From assembly GCA_963840855.1 (NCBI GenBank), contig CAWJBB010000004.1:1-23993 (forward strand): a DNA stretch of 23,993 nt, given 5' to 3'. This document shows, piece after piece, positions 15,782 through 23,993 of the stretch. The first letter of the stretch is position 1. Every line of letters starts with the position of its first letter. The notes below the pieces were generated by a model that was given only the letters and a program-made list of their open reading frames with translations, was not told where the DNA came from and did no database searches. Source of the DNA: an uncultured delta proteobacterium. GTDB lineage: Bacteria > Desulfobacterota > Binatia > UBA9968. A program made the translations under genes and the position numbers.

Positions 15782-17164
15782 CACTCTTGTCCAAATTAAG
15801 TTTTAGCAGTTGAGCCTCCTGTGGGTGTATATGTGGGTGATGTCGAAGTCATCCACTCAACCCACCAAAAACAAGGAGGCTCAACATGAATCGATTCTGT
15901 AGCATGTTCAGTCAAATTCTCCAACTTTTTCCTCGATCCGACTTTCAGTTGCTGGTTAAGGAGACCAAGGCCGAGAGGCATGCCCGCGGCTTTAGCTGTT
16001 GGGATCAGTTTGTCTCCATGCTGTTTTGCCAACTGGGCCGTGCCCACTCGCTTCGCGAGATCTGTAACGGGCTTTTAAGCTGTGAAGGGAAACTTTCCCA
16101 TCTAGGGATCGAGGAGGCTCCTAAACGCTCTTCGTTAGCCTATGCTAACGGACATCGTCCTTGGGAACTGTACCAAAAAGTATTTTTCGGGTTGCTTCAA
16201 CGCTGTCGCGAAGCGGGACCCTTCGCAAAGAAGTTGCGCTTTAAAAACAAGCTGGTCAGTTTAGACTCCACGGTGATTGACCTGTGCATCAGCATCTTTG
16301 ACTGGGCGCAATTTCGCCGCACCAAGGGAGCCATCAAGCTGCACTTGGTTTTGGATCACGATGGGTATCTGCCTTGTTTTGCGGTGGTCACGGAGGGAAA
16401 GGTTCATGATGTCAAGGTGGCTCACACGCTTTATTTCGAGCCGGGCACGGTGGTAGTGGATGATCGGGGCTATAATGACTACCGCTTGTTTGGTATGTGG
16501 AGCGAACAGGGAGTCTATTTTGTCACCCGCATGAAGGACAACGCCCTTTATGAAGTGATCGAGAATCGCCCGATGCCCAAAAATCGCTCTATCCTAAAGG
16601 ATCAGATCATTATTTTGAGTGGTGAGGGAGCCTGGGATAAATGTCCCTACCCATTGCGGAGAATCGAGGTATGGGACGCGGAAAAACAACAGGTTCTTGT
16701 CTTTCTCACCAATCACGATCAGTTCGCAGCCACTACCATTGCCGCCATCTATAAGGACCGCTGGCAGATTGAGTTGTTTTTCAAAGCGCTTAAGCAGAAC
16801 CTCAAGATCAAGACTTTCGTGGGAACTTCCGCCAATGCGGTTAAGATTCAAGTGTGGACGGCACTGATTGCCATGCTGGTTCTGCGCTATCTTAAGCTTA
16901 AGTCCAAGTTCTCCTGGTCGCTTTCCAATCTGGTGGCCTTGCTGCGGATGAACTTGTTCACCTATCGAGACTTGTGGGCTTGGTTGAACCAACCCTTTGG
17001 GACTCCTGCCCAAGCTGAGGCACCACACCGCCAGGAGGCTTTTTCGTTTGTCTAATTCGGACAGCACAACGGGGGTCTGGTTCTAAAAAGACAAAAACCT
17101 TGTCCAAATACGACGTAAAATCAATGGCGACTAGTCTAAACCCCGGCTAATTTGGACAGCAGTG
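15782..17164 (+). mobile_element. IS4-family insertion sequence, 1383 bp
   Basis: TIRs CACTCTTGTCCAAATTA / TAATTTGGACAGCAGTG (15 of 17); 9-bp TSD ACTTATACC at 15773-15781 and 17165-17173. Confidence 0.95.
15886..17055 (+). CDS. IS4-family DDE transposase (DUF4372 N-terminal domain + DDE_Tnp_1)
   Basis: LDSTVI, DDRGY and the YKDRWQIELFFKALKQ (YREK) signature; AAGGAGG RBS. Confidence 0.95.
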   Translation: MNRFCSMFSQILQLFPRSDFQLLVKETKAERHARGFSCWDQFVSMLFCQLGRAHSLREICNGLLSCEGKLSHLGIEEAPKRSSLAYANGHRPWELYQKVFFGLLQRCREAGPFAKKLRFKNKLVSLDSTVIDLCISIFDWAQFRRTKGAIKLHLVLDHDGYLPCFAVVTEGKVHDVKVAHTLYFEPGTVVVDDRGYNDYRLFGMWSEQGVYFVTRMKDNALYEVIENRPMPKNRSILKDQIIILSGEGAWDKCPYPLRRIEVWDAEKQQVLVFLTNHDQFAATTIAAIYKDRWQIELFFKALKQNLKIKTFVGTSANAVKIQVWTALIAMLVLRYLKLKSKFSWSLSNLVALLRMNLFTYRDLWAWLNQPFGTPAQAEAPHRQEAFSFV

Positions 17165-17861
17165 ACTTATACCGTATTTCCCGCCACCCGGGCCCTCGGC
17201 ATGCCGGTGCCGCTGGCCATCGCGGCCACCGGCATGATCGTCGATGGCGTATTCGATGCCTTTCCCAATTTGCGCGTCGGTTTCTTAGAGGGCGGCACGA
17301 GCTGGATCCCGATGGTGCTCGACCGCCTCGAACGGGAGTTGGAATACGGCGGTCTGCGCATCAGGCGCAAACCCTTGGATTACTTTACCGGTGGCAAGAT
17401 CTTCGTTGGCTGCGAGGGCAACGAGAAGGCGCTAGCCTACGCCATCGAAAGGGTCGGTCCGGAGCCATTTATGTTCGCGTCCGATTTCCCGCACGAGATT
17501 TCCCTCGACAATTGCATGGACGAAATCGACGAAATCGTCGAGCGCAATGATCTGAAAGCAGAGCATAAGGGTGCGATCCTAGGCGACAACGCCCGGCGGT
17601 TTTATAAAATTTAGTAGGCCGCTGAAAAAGACTCATTTGCTTCATTGCGCTCAATCGCCGCGCGAAAATCGTGCTCGTTTCTCGCGCTAGCTATCGCCAG
17701 CTCGCCCGGAATGACGATTGAATTATGTAACCAATTTCAGGGACACCATACTTGCCTAGCACCTAGACGATCTGACAAGGATTTACGATGCTTAAAGGTT
17801 ATCGCGTTTTCGACGCTGACACCCACGGCTCCATCAACCCGAAGATCACGTCGCCGGCCAA

Positions 17862-21079: not shown

Positions 21080-21297
21080 GAAGACCTCCTTATTTTTCTG
21101 ACTGTGTGACGTGAGACAAGGTGTGGAGTTGTTATCTGTTTGCTGAGTAAACCGGAATGGACAAAACGCCGCCATCAGGAAAACCATGGTTTGAGGGTGC
21201 GAATTTCCTTAGGCCCACCGGCCCTTGGGGACCACCTGCGTCGGCTTGTCAGAAAGAGTGCCCCGCAACAGCAGACTCGATCGACCCCGAAAAAGAT

Positions 21298-21439
21298 CTC
21301 AGTCGCCTACGTGCAGGGACTGGAAGACGACACGGGGAAGCCGGTCGTCTCCAGCACCGCCGCGTCGCTCTGGTGGGTATTGCACGCCAGGGGAATGAAA
21401 CCGCCTATCGAAGGCTTCGGCAGACTCCTGCGCGGGTAA
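21298..21439 (+). pseudogene. Orphan 3' fragment duplicating the end of the 18031-18744 gene
   Basis: SVAYVQGLEDDTGKPVVSSTAASLWWVLHARGMKPPIEGFGRLLRG* versus SVAHVQELEDDTQRPVVASTAASLWWVLQTLGMKPRIEGFGKLLRES*; 111 of 138 nt identical by hand count. Confidence 0.88.
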
Positions 21440-21480
21440 GCGCACCGTTTAGTTTTACTGGATCGCGTCCCAGCGTTTTC

Positions 21481-21564
21481 AGCAGGACAATGAGCAGCAA
21501 GCGTGTTTTGAATCGCGGTGGCCGAGGTGTTCAAAGTCCAGCGGACCGGCTAATGAGAATTTGA
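21481..21564 (+). pseudogene. intI: Relic C-terminus of an integron integrase
   Basis: SRTMSSKRVLNRGGRGVQSPADRL aligns to the IntI C-terminal signature (S/T)TTMIYTHVLNRGGRGVxSPxDxL; the catalytic Tyr position is mutated. Confidence 0.75.
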
Positions 21565-21604
21565 AAATGCGATGTCGCCTCGGGGATAGACTGCGGGCCA
21601 ATAG

Positions 21605-21730
21605 TGGGATAGGCGGCCACGCCGCCAGTAATTGCCAGAAAACGTGGCTTGACTTTCGCGTCGCAAGTAAGCGATACAGTTCAACAAATAATGTTGCAAG
21701 GCCTGCAGACCTGTTTGGGATAGGCGGCCA
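21605..21730 (+). repeat. 15-bp direct repeat TGGGATAGGCGGCCA in the intI-attI spacer
   Basis: Exact copies at 21605-21619 and 21716-21730. Confidence 0.7.
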
Positions 21731-21748
21731 ACAACGGCGCGGTCTAAA

Positions 21749-21769
21749 CGGCTCACTTAATAGTTAGCC
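21749..21769 (+). other. Putative attI site (R box GTTAGCC at 21763-21769)
   Basis: CGGCTCACTTAATA-GTTAGCC: a GTTRRRY-like core opening the first cassette, with no attC-length palindrome upstream. Confidence 0.6.
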
Positions 21770-21789
21770 GTCAGGAGAGTCGACCACCG

Positions 21790-22389
21790 GTGTCCGACAG
21801 AAAGAAGAAATTCGGTGAGCGCGCCACAAGACTCAAGCGAGCGCTCGCGAACGAACAGAAGAAGTACCGCCATATTGAGGACGGTGCAGGGAAACGCTAC
21901 TTGATCGGACCATTTTATGTTCTTGCGGGGGAGTTGAAAAAGGCTCTCGCGCACTACGACTGGTACGAGAAGCACTGTTCGGATGACGTTGGTGAGCCCA
22001 TCCACTACCTTTACTGGGCGTTGGCGCTCTACCGGACTGGCGAGACCAAAAAAGCGACCGCCAAACTTCTTGAAACGATGCTGCAGAACGTCTACCTCTT
22101 GCCAATACTGCTCGGGGCGCCGCCCGATTCGTACGACATCTGGCATGGCTCGAACATGGAACAGCCAGATTACATCACAGAAGCCCCACCGGACTTCCTA
22201 CCTCAGCTGTCGGAGCAGGAGCGTTCGTGGATTGCGGAACAGTTCGACAGTTTTCGCTTCAGGCGCGCTCGCGAAGAGTACGTGGCGACGTACCGCGCGC
22301 TAAAGTATGAAAAGAACGTCGATAACCGACGGCAGATTTTGAGGCGCTGGAATGAGTTCTTGGCTCAGTCGGCAACGATTGACGGCTAA
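21790..22389 (+). CDS. Cassette 1: helical TPR-like hypothetical protein
   Basis: AGGAG upstream; helical pattern GELKKALAHYDWY...YLYWALALYRTGETKKATAKL; the stop codon lies inside the attC R'' box. Confidence 0.75.
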   Translation: MSDRKKKFGERATRLKRALANEQKKYRHIEDGAGKRYLIGPFYVLAGELKKALAHYDWYEKHCSDDVGEPIHYLYWALALYRTGETKKATAKLLETMLQNVYLLPILLGAPPDSYDIWHGSNMEQPDYITEAPPDFLPQLSEQERSWIAEQFDSFRFRRAREEYVATYRALKYEKNVDNRRQILRRWNEFLAQSATIDG

Positions 22390-22446
22390 CATTGCCGTCA
22401 ACGGCGACGGGCCGCAAGCGGTCCGCGCGTTACCTCGACGTTAGCC
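22384..22446 (+). mobile_element. attC site 1 (63 bp)
   Basis: R'' GGCTAAC ... R' GTTAGCC, with imperfect inner palindrome gtcaacggcgacgggccgc-aa-gcggtccgcgcgttac. GACGGCTAAC is the exact reverse complement of the cassette start GTTAGCCGTC. Confidence 0.9.
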
Positions 22447-22470
22447 AGACCAGATTCCCGAGAGACCATC

Positions 22471-23340
22471 GTGACGTCGCTTGACCCTTTCGAGATCGTA
22501 GCATCCGCGCTGACCGCTCGCGCGTTTCTTGAGCCCCTTGGTCCACCGCTACGCGTCGATATGACCTTCGATCAAGCCAACGATCTTCTCGTGTCTGCTT
22601 GGGATGCATCTGACTTCGCATATGAGCCCGTGGATCGAGTCTCATTAGTTTACAGACAAACGCAGCTTGCCGGGTGGTACTCGATGGATATGTATGACAG
22701 CGATCTCGATATCATTGGGGAAGTCGTGCATCCGATTCATCCAGATGAGATTGCCTCAGCCGATACACCGGCCCTCAAGCTCGTTCATATCCTCGCTGAG
22801 CGTCCCAGAAGTGGAATCATCGTCTTTGTACTCGAAGAGGATGCTATCGTAGGCACAGTCTCACCCGAAATGTTTTGGGGGCCTGTCTTTCGCCTGTGTC
22901 TGTTTGCCCTTACGCTCGAACTCGAGGGCGCGGCAGTTGCAGCTGCCATGCGGCATCCTCTAGCGTCGTGGAATGCATTGTCCCCCGGCCGTCGGGCGAA
23001 GGCGGAGGAGATTCGGAAGCGCCTTTGCTCTGCCGAGCATCGTAACAGGCCGTTGATGCATGAAAGAGCACCGCTTGGTCCACTCTTGGCGACCACCTCG
23101 TTTGCTGACAAAGGAACGATTGTCGCAAAGACGAAGCTTTTGGAGGGCTGGACGCTCGACGGCGTTAAATCTCTGTTCGGTCGGGCAGAAAGAGTACGGA
23201 ACTCGTGTGCGCATACTCGAGATACAGTCGACGCGCCGCTCGGGCGCGATGCCAAGGGGGTAGCGGACTTTGTCGATTTATGCACCCGCGCTATCGCGGG
23301 ACTTCGAACGACACAGAGAGATGGCACTGAAGCTGGCTAA
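22471..23340 (+). CDS. Cassette 2: degenerate CBS-pair plus C-terminal HEPN-like domain protein
   Basis: CBS-like segments (LTARAFLEPL, ASADTPALKLVHIL, FVLEEDAIVGTVS); helical C-terminus LFALTLELE...SFADK...ERVRNSCAH (Rx4H); stop inside the attC R'' box. Confidence 0.68.
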   Translation: MTSLDPFEIVASALTARAFLEPLGPPLRVDMTFDQANDLLVSAWDASDFAYEPVDRVSLVYRQTQLAGWYSMDMYDSDLDIIGEVVHPIHPDEIASADTPALKLVHILAERPRSGIIVFVLEEDAIVGTVSPEMFWGPVFRLCLFALTLELEGAAVAAAMRHPLASWNALSPGRRAKAEEIRKRLCSAEHRNRPLMHERAPLGPLLATTSFADKGTIVAKTKLLEGWTLDGVKSLFGRAERVRNSCAHTRDTVDAPLGRDAKGVADFVDLCTRAIAGLRTTQRDGTEAG

Positions 23341-23415
23341 CAATCGGCTTGAAACGGATCTTCGGACTCGCTCGCTTCGCTCGCTGGCCTCGTCCGTTCA
23401 GCCTTAGTGTTAGCT
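23335..23415 (+). mobile_element. attC site 2 (81 bp)
   Basis: R'' GGCTAAC ... R' GTTAGCT; L arms ggcttgaaacgga / tccgttcagcc with unpaired bases. CTGGCTAAC complements the cassette start GTTAGCCAG. Confidence 0.9.
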
Positions 23416-23453
23416 CTCGGGACGCAAGGTCGCGCCGTAAACCCACGTCGGGT

Positions 23454-23482
23454 TTGCAATATATGCATCATATGCATACACT
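23454..23482 (+). promoter_or_regulatory. Sigma70 promoter with an overlapping operator for the TA cassette
   Basis: TTGCAA-N17-TACACT, with two ATATGCAT copies (23461-23468, 23470-23477) in the spacer. Confidence 0.7.
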
Positions 23483-23488
23483 TGTCTG

Positions 23489-23761
23489 GTGACCGCCATC
23501 TTTGACCCCAAGAAGGACGCCGCAAATCTCAAGAAGCATGGTGCCTCTCTTACCGAAGGCGACGGAGTCTTGAGCGACCCACTGGCGGTGACGATTGAAG
23601 ATAAATCGGCTGAGGGAGAGCAACGGTTTGTCACTCTCGGCACAAACACGTTCGGTTCCCTTAGAGTTGTGGTCTGGACTCCTCGGGACGACGACTTTCG
23701 CATAATCTCGGTTCGGAAACCGACACGGAAGGAAAGAAGAACATATGAAGAAGGAGTATAA
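23489..23761 (+). CDS. brnT: Cassette 3: BrnT family toxin
   Basis: FDPKKDAANLKKHG...EGEQRFVTLG...VVVWTPRDDDFRIISVRKPTRKERRTY. Confidence 0.92.
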   Translation: MTAIFDPKKDAANLKKHGASLTEGDGVLSDPLAVTIEDKSAEGEQRFVTLGTNTFGSLRVVVWTPRDDDFRIISVRKPTRKERRTYEEGV

Positions 23762-23993
23762 TTTTTCCAAGGGCAAACGCGGAGCGGTGATTCCCCAGGT
23801 TGGGAAGACGCGCATCACTATCTATCTCGACGATGCGATCTTGAAGCGTTTCAAGGCTGAGTCCGAGAGAACCGGGAAAGGGTATCAAACCCTCATCAAC
23901 GATGTACTCAACTCCTACCTGGGTCTGAGGGAGAAGCCCCTTACGGCAGAGATGGTGCGCAAGATCGTTCGCGAAGAGCTTTCTGCTCAAAAC
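23745..23993 (+). CDS. brnA: BrnA family (RHH) antitoxin, runs off the window edge
   Basis: Not in the ORF track. MKKEYNFSKGKRGAVIPQVGKTRITIYLDDAILKRFKAESERTGKGYQTLINDVLNSYL...; overlaps the brnT end by 17 nt. Confidence 0.9.
   Translation, partial: MKKEYNFSKGKRGAVIPQVGKTRITIYLDDAILKRFKAESERTGKGYQTLINDVLNSYLGLREKPLTAEMVRKIVREELSAQN

Follow-up and report, generated by a model that had tools for sequence, protein, structure and literature searches.

We analysed a 23,993-nucleotide stretch of DNA (hereafter the window) from an uncultured delta proteobacterium, which makes up the whole of contig CAWJBB010000004.1 in a 7.1-Mb assembly of 93 contigs (GCA_963840855.1). Our subject is a gene at 22471–23340 that encodes a 289-amino-acid protein with a predicted N-terminal CBS pair and a putative C-terminal HEPN domain, and that is carried in an integron gene cassette. 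The gene and its parts are as follows.

22471–23340, plus strand: CBS–HEPN gene, 289 amino acids, with a GTG start and a TAA stop (23338–23340) embedded in the R'' core of an attC site
22510–22875, plus strand: predicted CBS pair (Bateman module), residues about 14–135, from profile matches and fold
22876–23337, plus strand: HEPN-type all-helical domain, residues 136–289, proposed from VIA fold ranking, sub-threshold Pfam matches and hhalign
22924–22926, plus strand: codon of Glu152, the last E of LELE (residues 149–152), in the first HEPN helix; invariant in 76 of 76 aligned sequences and within the predicted dimer interface (152–153)
23197–23214, plus strand: RNSCAH (residues 243–248), which reads as the HEPN catalytic motif R-N-x-x-A-H (Rx4H), from alignment columns and the predicted interface

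A word-indexed search found 21 homologs of the protein at E ≤ 1e-3, and among 1.84 billion cluster representatives, searched exhaustively, 256 matched at the same threshold, 128 at E ≤ 1e-10 and 10 at E ≤ 1e-30. We aligned the query with 75 homologs covering most of its length (alignment A2, n = 76), leaving out fragments and partial-match rows; identity to the query ranges from 20 to 75%, and the N-terminus of the protein is kept among the homologs. In a closer alignment (A1) the catalytic motif is broken in two rows, both of which are truncated or out-of-frame fragments. We conclude from this sequence conservation that 22471–23340 is a real, conserved gene.

The CBS pair and the HEPN domain

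The original prediction had read a degenerate CBS pair by eye in the N-terminal half, and both profiles and fold bear this out. Pfam was silent on the query itself even at E ≤ 1, while CBS (PF00571) matched 31 of the 76 A2 members at E ≤ 0.01 and 51 at E ≤ 5. Used as a profile, A2 matched solved CBS-pair proteins of the PDB over profile positions 14–137 (5awe_A, E = 5.4e-5; MgtE 2yvy_A, E = 1.3e-4). The full-length AlphaFold2 model built with A2 as input (predicted local distance difference test score (pLDDT) 92.6, predicted template modelling score 0.88) combines a beta/alpha N-terminal half with a C-terminal half made up entirely of helices. Foldseek of the full model against the PDB returned CBS-pair proteins only, including all four matches at E ≤ 1e-3, and VIA aligned the model with many CBS pairs at Z scores of 7–8.2 (root-mean-square deviation (rmsd) about 3 Å, 110–125 residues aligned). 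By profile and by modelled fold, then, the N-terminal half is a CBS pair. The sole lead of the full profile outside CBS proteins, a CRISPR-associated protein (8y7f and others) at positions 221–272, had E values of 0.4–0.7 and was too weak to be used.

The ribose-binding motif of CBS domains is G-h-h-[ST]-x-x-D. The first CBS domain of the query retains both G68 and D73, which are kept in 66 and 45 of the 76 sequences, respectively. In the second (CBS2), the query reads G128-T-V-S131-P-E-M134; G128 is present in 74 of 76 sequences, and position 134 is Asp in 49 and Met in 4. That the query and its closest relatives carry Met134 where most homologs have the CBS2 Asp weighs against ligand sensing of the usual kind by this protein, the ligand site of which may be altered.

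For the C-terminal half, the original prediction had pointed by eye to a HEPN domain with an upstream Glu in LELE and the RNSCAH motif, and HEPN proteins indeed head the VIA ranking. The best match of the full model was the HEPN toxin 7ae2_A (Z 8.5, rmsd 3.7 Å, 132 aligned), with other HEPN entries (1wwp_B, 2hsb_A, AbiA 8oz7_A, 8xdj_A and sacsin 3o10_A) interleaved with CBS pairs. We also folded residues 135–289 alone, using eight sequences (pLDDT 84.7), and compared this model with 48,161 chains. The HEPN protein 2hsb_A ranked first (Z 8.9, 3.3 Å, 103 aligned) and 7ae2_A second (8.6, 2.9 Å, 105 aligned), followed by 5yep_B (8.0), Roquin 4txa_A, 1ylm_B, 1wwp_B, AbiA 8oz7_A (7.7) and sacsin HEPN 3o10_A (7.5), and then by 1ufb_A, 8xdj_A (7.1), AbiF 8vz6_B (7.1, 140 aligned), 4nqf_B (7.0) and 1jog_A; Csm6 and Cas13h1 came lower. 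Five of the top 15 titles name HEPN and two Abi proteins are also among them; 5yep_B, 1ylm_B, 1wwp_B, 1ufb_A, 1jog_A and Roquin are presumably HEPN-type too.

Fainter signals of the same kind came from sequence comparison. Families of the Pfam HEPN clan matched A2 members at E ≤ 5, all below threshold (HEPN_Apea on 5 of 76, Abi_2 on 4, RiboL-PSP on 3, Swt1 on 2 and Csm6_HEPN on 1; best E = 8.4e-4), and were the only recurring families besides CBS. By hhalign, the C-terminal A2 columns aligned with three Apea-type HEPN domains, drawn from same-phylum genomes, at P = 0.0015 (0.44 for an N-terminal control), in a register that places RNxxAH on the RNxxxH of the Apea-type domains. In the ESM Atlas, residues 136–289 scored highest with an unnamed cluster (0.86) and reached 0.81 with a Swt1-like HEPN cluster, both too low to count as more than a lead.

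The catalytic motif itself, the conservation of which the original prediction had singled out as a check, is held throughout the family: R243 and H248, like E152, are invariant (76 of 76), and N244 and A247 are each kept in 71. In the AlphaFold2 model, Rx4H sits at the end of helix 229–247. By our uncomputed estimate, a protein of this length could readily contain an R-x4-H string by chance alone; the motif stands above chance because it is conserved across 76 diverse homologs. Beyond the motif, L170, R174, T209, D213 and K214 (nucleotides about 22978–23112) are kept in 73–74 of the 76 sequences, and none is among the confident dimer-interface residues; they could have a role in substrate binding or in CBS–HEPN coupling.

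Several results weigh against a HEPN assignment. The VIA Z scores of 7–9 lie in a range that helical bundles can reach without kinship, so the fold alone is insufficient for the call. Foldseek of the HEPN domain alone gave nothing at E ≤ 1e-3, with AbiF 8vz6_A at rank 2 (E = 0.84); of the two folds for which the original prediction had suggested Foldseek, only the CBS fold was matched significantly, by the full model. A PDB search with an eight-row C-terminal profile found no HEPN protein and only two chance G-alpha matches, hhalign assigned the Apea-type relationship a probability of only 16%, and the 289-amino-acid protein itself had no match in Pfam (E ≤ 1), PADLOC or NCBIfam. The talin domain at rank 1 of the domain-only Foldseek search (E = 0.48) is unrelated.

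The HEPN domain was originally described as binding nucleotides, and the modest fold scores, the lack of a significant domain-only Foldseek match and the lack of a Pfam HEPN model at threshold would suit a non-catalytic, HEPN-like helical domain that binds a ligand or partner, its Rx4H likeness being structural and not enzymatic. We consider this very improbable, because unbroken conservation of R243, H248 and E152 at 20–75% identity, together with near-invariant N244 and A247, is the pattern of catalytic HEPN families, and because the predicted dimer brings the two motifs opposite one another. The fold enrichment, the invariant E...R-N-x-x-A-H residues and the clan-consistent weak matches, taken together, make a HEPN-type C-terminal domain well supported by sequence and model.

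The predicted homodimer and published CBS–HEPN proteins

The original prediction had also suggested modelling a dimer. The homodimer prediction scored 0.46, compared with 0.00 for the best control, and passed a mark that 20 of 30 proteins solved as one-chain pairs reach, against 1 of 23 single-chain structures. Separate runs shared at least 68% of contacts, with a partner pLDDT of at least 79. The predicted interface comprises helix 136–153 (including E152) and residues 243–248 of both copies, the N-terminal helix 6–18 and a part of the CBS pair (47–52), and R243 contacts residue 247 of the other copy. As modelled, this interface builds a composite RNase site in the HEPN manner. Likeness to, or memory of, solved HEPN dimers may account for part of the pass.

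The CBS–HEPN architecture and its role in defence are already in print. Fusions of HEPN to CBS, sometimes with an HD domain, were listed in 2013 by Anantharaman et al., who, in the sections accessible to us, proposed ligand-regulated RNA stability or degradation (PMC3710099). Compared by architecture only, the fusions given there (alr3009 and gi 118580987) share with our protein the domain pair and an active-type Rx4-6H motif; they differ in that some add an HD domain, which the 289-amino-acid protein lacks. The same sections present architectures only and describe no mobile-element or integron context (PMC3710099).

The closest published counterpart is DS-11 (DefensePredictor), a one-protein CBS and HEPN system validated as anti-phage in E. 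coli (PMC13092281; bioRxiv 10.1101/2025.01.08.631726). According to the portion of the report available to us, defence is lost with the CBS substitution Y157A and with HEPN catalytic mutants, a dimer with ATP is predicted by AlphaFold3, and the authors' conclusion is that the nuclease is under the control of an adenine derivative yet to be discovered (PMC13092281). Compared by architecture only, DS-11 and our protein are alike in being single CBS and HEPN proteins with a predicted dimer and proposed control of a HEPN nuclease by a CBS ligand. Our protein differs in that it is encoded on a cassette in a soil metagenome-assembled genome and has no Asp in its CBS2 motif. In addition, Y157 of DS-11, as described in that portion, lies within the CBS domain, whereas the CBS pair here ends near residue 135. 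We conjecture from this offset that DS-11 may be longer at its N-terminus; some longer family members carry CBS matches at about 108–187.

Judged by titles and abstracts, only DefensePredictor concerns such a system in the phage literature on HEPN and CBS since 2023, and the exact term 'CBS-HEPN' was not found in the literature searched. The mechanism put forward in the original prediction, in which CBS sensing would gate a dimeric HEPN RNase for single-gene phage defence, is that of the published DS-11 model and is partly supported by our analysis. Its implied novelty was too high, because both architecture and defence role had been published; the 289-amino-acid protein adds an unannotated member.

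The integron cassette and its surroundings

The original prediction had further taken the gene to be cassette-borne. The cassette and its recombination sites are the following.

22441–23409, plus strand: integron gene cassette of 969 bp with one open reading frame (ORF), a 30-nucleotide leader and too little space for its own promoter, delimited by comparison with metagenome contig L030 and soil contigs
22384–22446, plus strand: attC of the preceding cassette, R'' GGCTAAC at 22384–22390 and R' GTTAGCC at 22440–22446, cores paired by script
23335–23415, plus strand: attC of the CBS–HEPN cassette, R'' GGCTAAC at 23335–23341 and R' GTTAGCT at 23409–23415, an inverted repeat kept with the gene in L030

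The borders of the unit are seen in other DNA. Positions 103–1080 of L030, which is 1,229 nucleotides long, match window positions 22439–23414 at 95.1% over 978 columns (BLASTN), and its flanks are unrelated. Soil contigs from runs X1, X3 and X18 diverge just before 22438–22440, and several others diverge behind 23404–23413. The 5' boundary corresponds to G|TT of the R' core GTTAGCC at 22440–22446. Both the CBS–HEPN ORF and the preceding ORF end in GGC-TAA-C, with the stop codon inside R'', and GTTAGC follows 60–80 nucleotides downstream of each. We thereby confirm that the CBS–HEPN gene is cassette-borne and that the unit occurs in different contexts.

The case rests on this comparison of contexts because the folding energies of the attC sites are not unusual. 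Their bottom strands fold with R'' and R' paired, at energies that are ordinary against shuffled sequences (z = −0.75 for the preceding attC and −1.2 for the cassette's own), and the hairpin of the latter has an inner L-box-like stem with bulges. The GGCTAAC/GTTAGCC cores fall outside the strict RYYYAAC...GTTRRRY pattern and were paired by relaxed scans. The cassette does not stand out from the genome in G+C content (0.563 and 0.562, respectively), and no promoter-like site was found on the plus strand within 21100–23993.

A point against a complete integron is that no integron integrase was found on the window contig (TIGR02249); the window would therefore hold either an integrase-free attC array or one piece of an array, lying at a contig end. 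Elsewhere in the assembly, contig C1 carries a full IntI (442 bits, cut-off 265; 45987–46880, minus strand) and contig C21 a partial one, and no attC pairs of the GGCTAAC/GTTAGC type were seen next to the C1 gene. At C1 42288–46880, the full IntI stands beside several tyrosine-recombinase-like matches on the opposite strand.

In soil runs X1 and X3, the cassette's own attC (region 23316–23443) has a far greater summed contig depth than the gene (120 compared with 9 in X1), and in X1 it lies on 15 different contigs at position 23368. As this attC lies on many different soil contigs, one attC sequence type is common to many cassettes in these communities. Contigs from metatranscriptome libraries (X17 and X18) cover 22438–22551 and 23150–23405 at 95–99% likeness; we did not count this as expression because DNA can occur in such libraries, and window parts that lack contig cover in the four soil and metatranscriptome runs compared are uninformative.

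The cassette is followed directly by another.

23489–23993, plus strand: next cassette, with BrnT toxin (23489–23761; Pfam BrnT_toxin, E = 3.8e-23) and overlapping BrnA antitoxin (23745–23993; BrnA_antitoxin, E = 9.7e-10)

Toxin–antitoxin cassettes such as BrnT/BrnA are typical of chromosomal integron arrays; this one, in which brnA runs off the contig end, is context and lies outside the CBS–HEPN unit. A related copy of the brnA part occurs in run X3 at about 90% likeness (28 differing letters over 23702–23993).

The adjoining BrnT/BrnA cassette raises a second explanation, in which the protein would be a self-contained addiction or stabilisation toxin, its HEPN moiety held in check in cis by the CBS pair, that helps to retain the cassette array much as integron toxin–antitoxin cassettes do. 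HEPN–MNT toxins, which are dimeric RNases with Rx4H, give the C-terminal domain its best structural matches (7ae2, Z 8.6, 2.9 Å, 105 aligned; 5yep, which we take to be the HEPN toxin of such a pair, 8.0; 8xdj, 7.1), and these matches speak for a toxin. The HEPN–MNT toxins differ in being stand-alone proteins of about 130–140 amino acids neutralised by a separate MNT nucleotidyltransferase, whereas the protein studied here has its CBS pair in cis. Moreover, the 969-bp cassette has no antitoxin-like second ORF; no MNT antitoxin gene lies beside the CBS–HEPN gene, the neighbours of which are an unrelated 199-amino-acid protein and BrnT/BrnA, and no MNT-type partner was found among the scanned ORFs that flank its homologs. 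A single stable polypeptide also has no obvious route to post-segregational killing, and we give the addiction toxin little credence.

Cassettes with HEPN effectors have been linked to defence in another genus: according to the parts of two reports available to us, HEPN-bearing integron cassettes protect Vibrio from phages (10.1101/2024.07.02.601686; 10.64898/2026.03.17.712381). The Taranis, Esos and V. mimicus HEPN AbiU2 cassettes, as described there, are likewise short integron cassettes with a HEPN effector, and are anti-phage. They differ from ours in belonging to other HEPN families with other N-terminal parts (AbiJ-like, AbiU2), in having no CBS domain and in their Vibrio hosts.

Upstream, the preceding cassette (21763–22446) contains the 199-amino-acid ORF (21790–22389), which had no match in Pfam, PADLOC or NCBIfam. 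Its stop codon falls within GGCTAAC, the R'' core of the attC, and the different upstream sequence of L030 shows that the ORF is not linked to the CBS–HEPN gene. No convincing R'' partner was found for the first GTTAGCC core (21763–21769). Just upstream of that core, two perfect 15-nucleotide direct repeats, TGGGATAGGCGGCCA at 21605 and 21716, lie in a stretch of about 600 nucleotides with no convincing gene; the region 21605–21769 may represent either a decayed attC or an attI-like site whose repeats would bind the integrase. Further away, a DDE transposase gene (DUF4372 and DDE_Tnp_1; 15886–17055) precedes an ORF whose match to Amidohydro_2 is confined to the C-terminal half of the profile (positions 144–289), which suggests that an insertion sequence cut an amidohydrolase gene at 15886–17611.

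Distribution of the family and the proposed mechanism

The A2 profile matched proteins in 53 of 400 other genomes of the phylum (E ≤ 1e-5). In seven of these 53 the match extends into the HEPN half, and the other matches are generic CBS proteins. Pattern-based scans found one genome locus, in an Acidobacteriota metagenome-assembled genome, and seven metagenome loci. Longer fused forms (507–2000 amino acids) were not found at E ≤ 1e-3, which is weak evidence as to their absence. Among nine related loci at which the flanking ORFs were scanned, the neighbours differ and include Kelch, RecQ, a metallo-beta-lactamase fold, PEGA, 3-hydroxyacyl-CoA dehydrogenase, PGI, an HD-domain protein and MlaD. 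Varied neighbourhoods of this kind support a single gene with no fixed partner and give no defence-island signal. At one of these loci (L012), an HD-domain gene (2204–2776) lies directly downstream of the CBS–HEPN homolog, with PGI upstream, an arrangement that recalls the CBS–HD–HEPN fusions in the sections of the 2013 survey accessible to us (PMC3710099). Apart from L030, no attC-like pair was found next to the homologs in 14 related loci scanned, and the family is therefore not exclusively cassette-borne.

In several respects the distribution speaks against a mobile defence gene. One homolog (L031) is flanked by RecQ and Kelch genes, with no attC visible by eye, and tblastn searches of plasmid and phage collections gave no match. 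The original prediction had looked to defence-gene annotation and to neighbourhoods for support, and neither supplied it: PADLOC, in a 2023 release that predates DS-11, did not match the protein, and it matched none of ten neighbours of distant homologs, several of which are housekeeping genes (PGI, 3-hydroxyacyl-CoA dehydrogenase and MlaD).

Such surroundings would fit a physiological regulator of RNA stability with no role against phages, in which the CBS pair reads the energy or nucleotide state of the cell and the HEPN RNase trims RNA during stress or dormancy. Ligand-regulated RNA stability was proposed for CBS–HEPN and CBS–HD–HEPN proteins in the accessible sections of the same survey (PMC3710099), and distant homologs do sit amid housekeeping genes (PGI and the HD-domain gene in L012, 3-hydroxyacyl-CoA dehydrogenase in L011 and MlaD in L013), where PADLOC finds no defence neighbours. 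The query copy, however, is a mobile integron cassette present in several unrelated contexts beside a toxin–antitoxin cassette, and the family is sparse (7 of 400 phylum genomes), which is more in keeping with an accessory gene than with a core regulator. In addition, the only tested protein with this architecture, as far as the available portion of the DS-11 report goes, is a defence gene (PMC13092281). We therefore regard a housekeeping regulator as rather unlikely, though a stronger contender than the addiction toxin.

We favour a ligand-gated dimeric RNase that probably acts in phage defence or abortive infection. The protein would be a self-contained sensor–effector in which a CBS pair at the N-terminus and a HEPN endoribonuclease domain at the C-terminus share one chain. 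It would most likely form a homodimer, bringing together the first HEPN helices and both R-N-x-x-A-H motifs in a composite RNase site at the interface, with Glu152 nearby; the CBS pairs and the N-terminal helix would also contribute to the interface. A small ligand that binds to the CBS pair or leaves it may change the geometry of the dimer and switch on RNA cleavage; the analogy of other CBS proteins and of DS-11 suggests an adenine nucleotide or derivative. We infer that the resulting cell arrest would abort the phage infection. The gene travels as a promoterless 969-bp cassette between attC sites, beside the BrnT/BrnA cassette, in a soil bacterium. The one-ORF cassette and the differing flanks in L030, the soil contigs and the related loci point to a single-gene system.

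The replacement of the CBS2 Asp by Met in the query subgroup and the near invariance of R174, T209, D213 and K214 suggest a further departure from the ligand-gated reading, a long shot in our estimation. The family might read a signal other than adenylate, or its CBS pair might dock on a cellular machine such as the ribosome, with the HEPN domain cutting a specific translation RNA, and the promoterless cassette might be armed only when integron reshuffling brings it into an expressed position. Archaeal CBS hibernation factors rank among the CBS matches of the protein.

The cassette shows the putative CBS–HEPN sensor–effector design moving among soil bacteria as a compact integron unit of 969 bp; as phage defence, this design has so far been validated once, in E. 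coli. The family comprises at least 256 clusters at 50% identity that are invisible to Pfam, NCBIfam and PADLOC, and a new profile would let defence pipelines annotate it. Natural variants with and without the CBS2 Asp may be useful for finding the ligand that would gate the RNase. The cassette would also be one more case, outside Vibrio, for the view that defence genes are stored in integron arrays.

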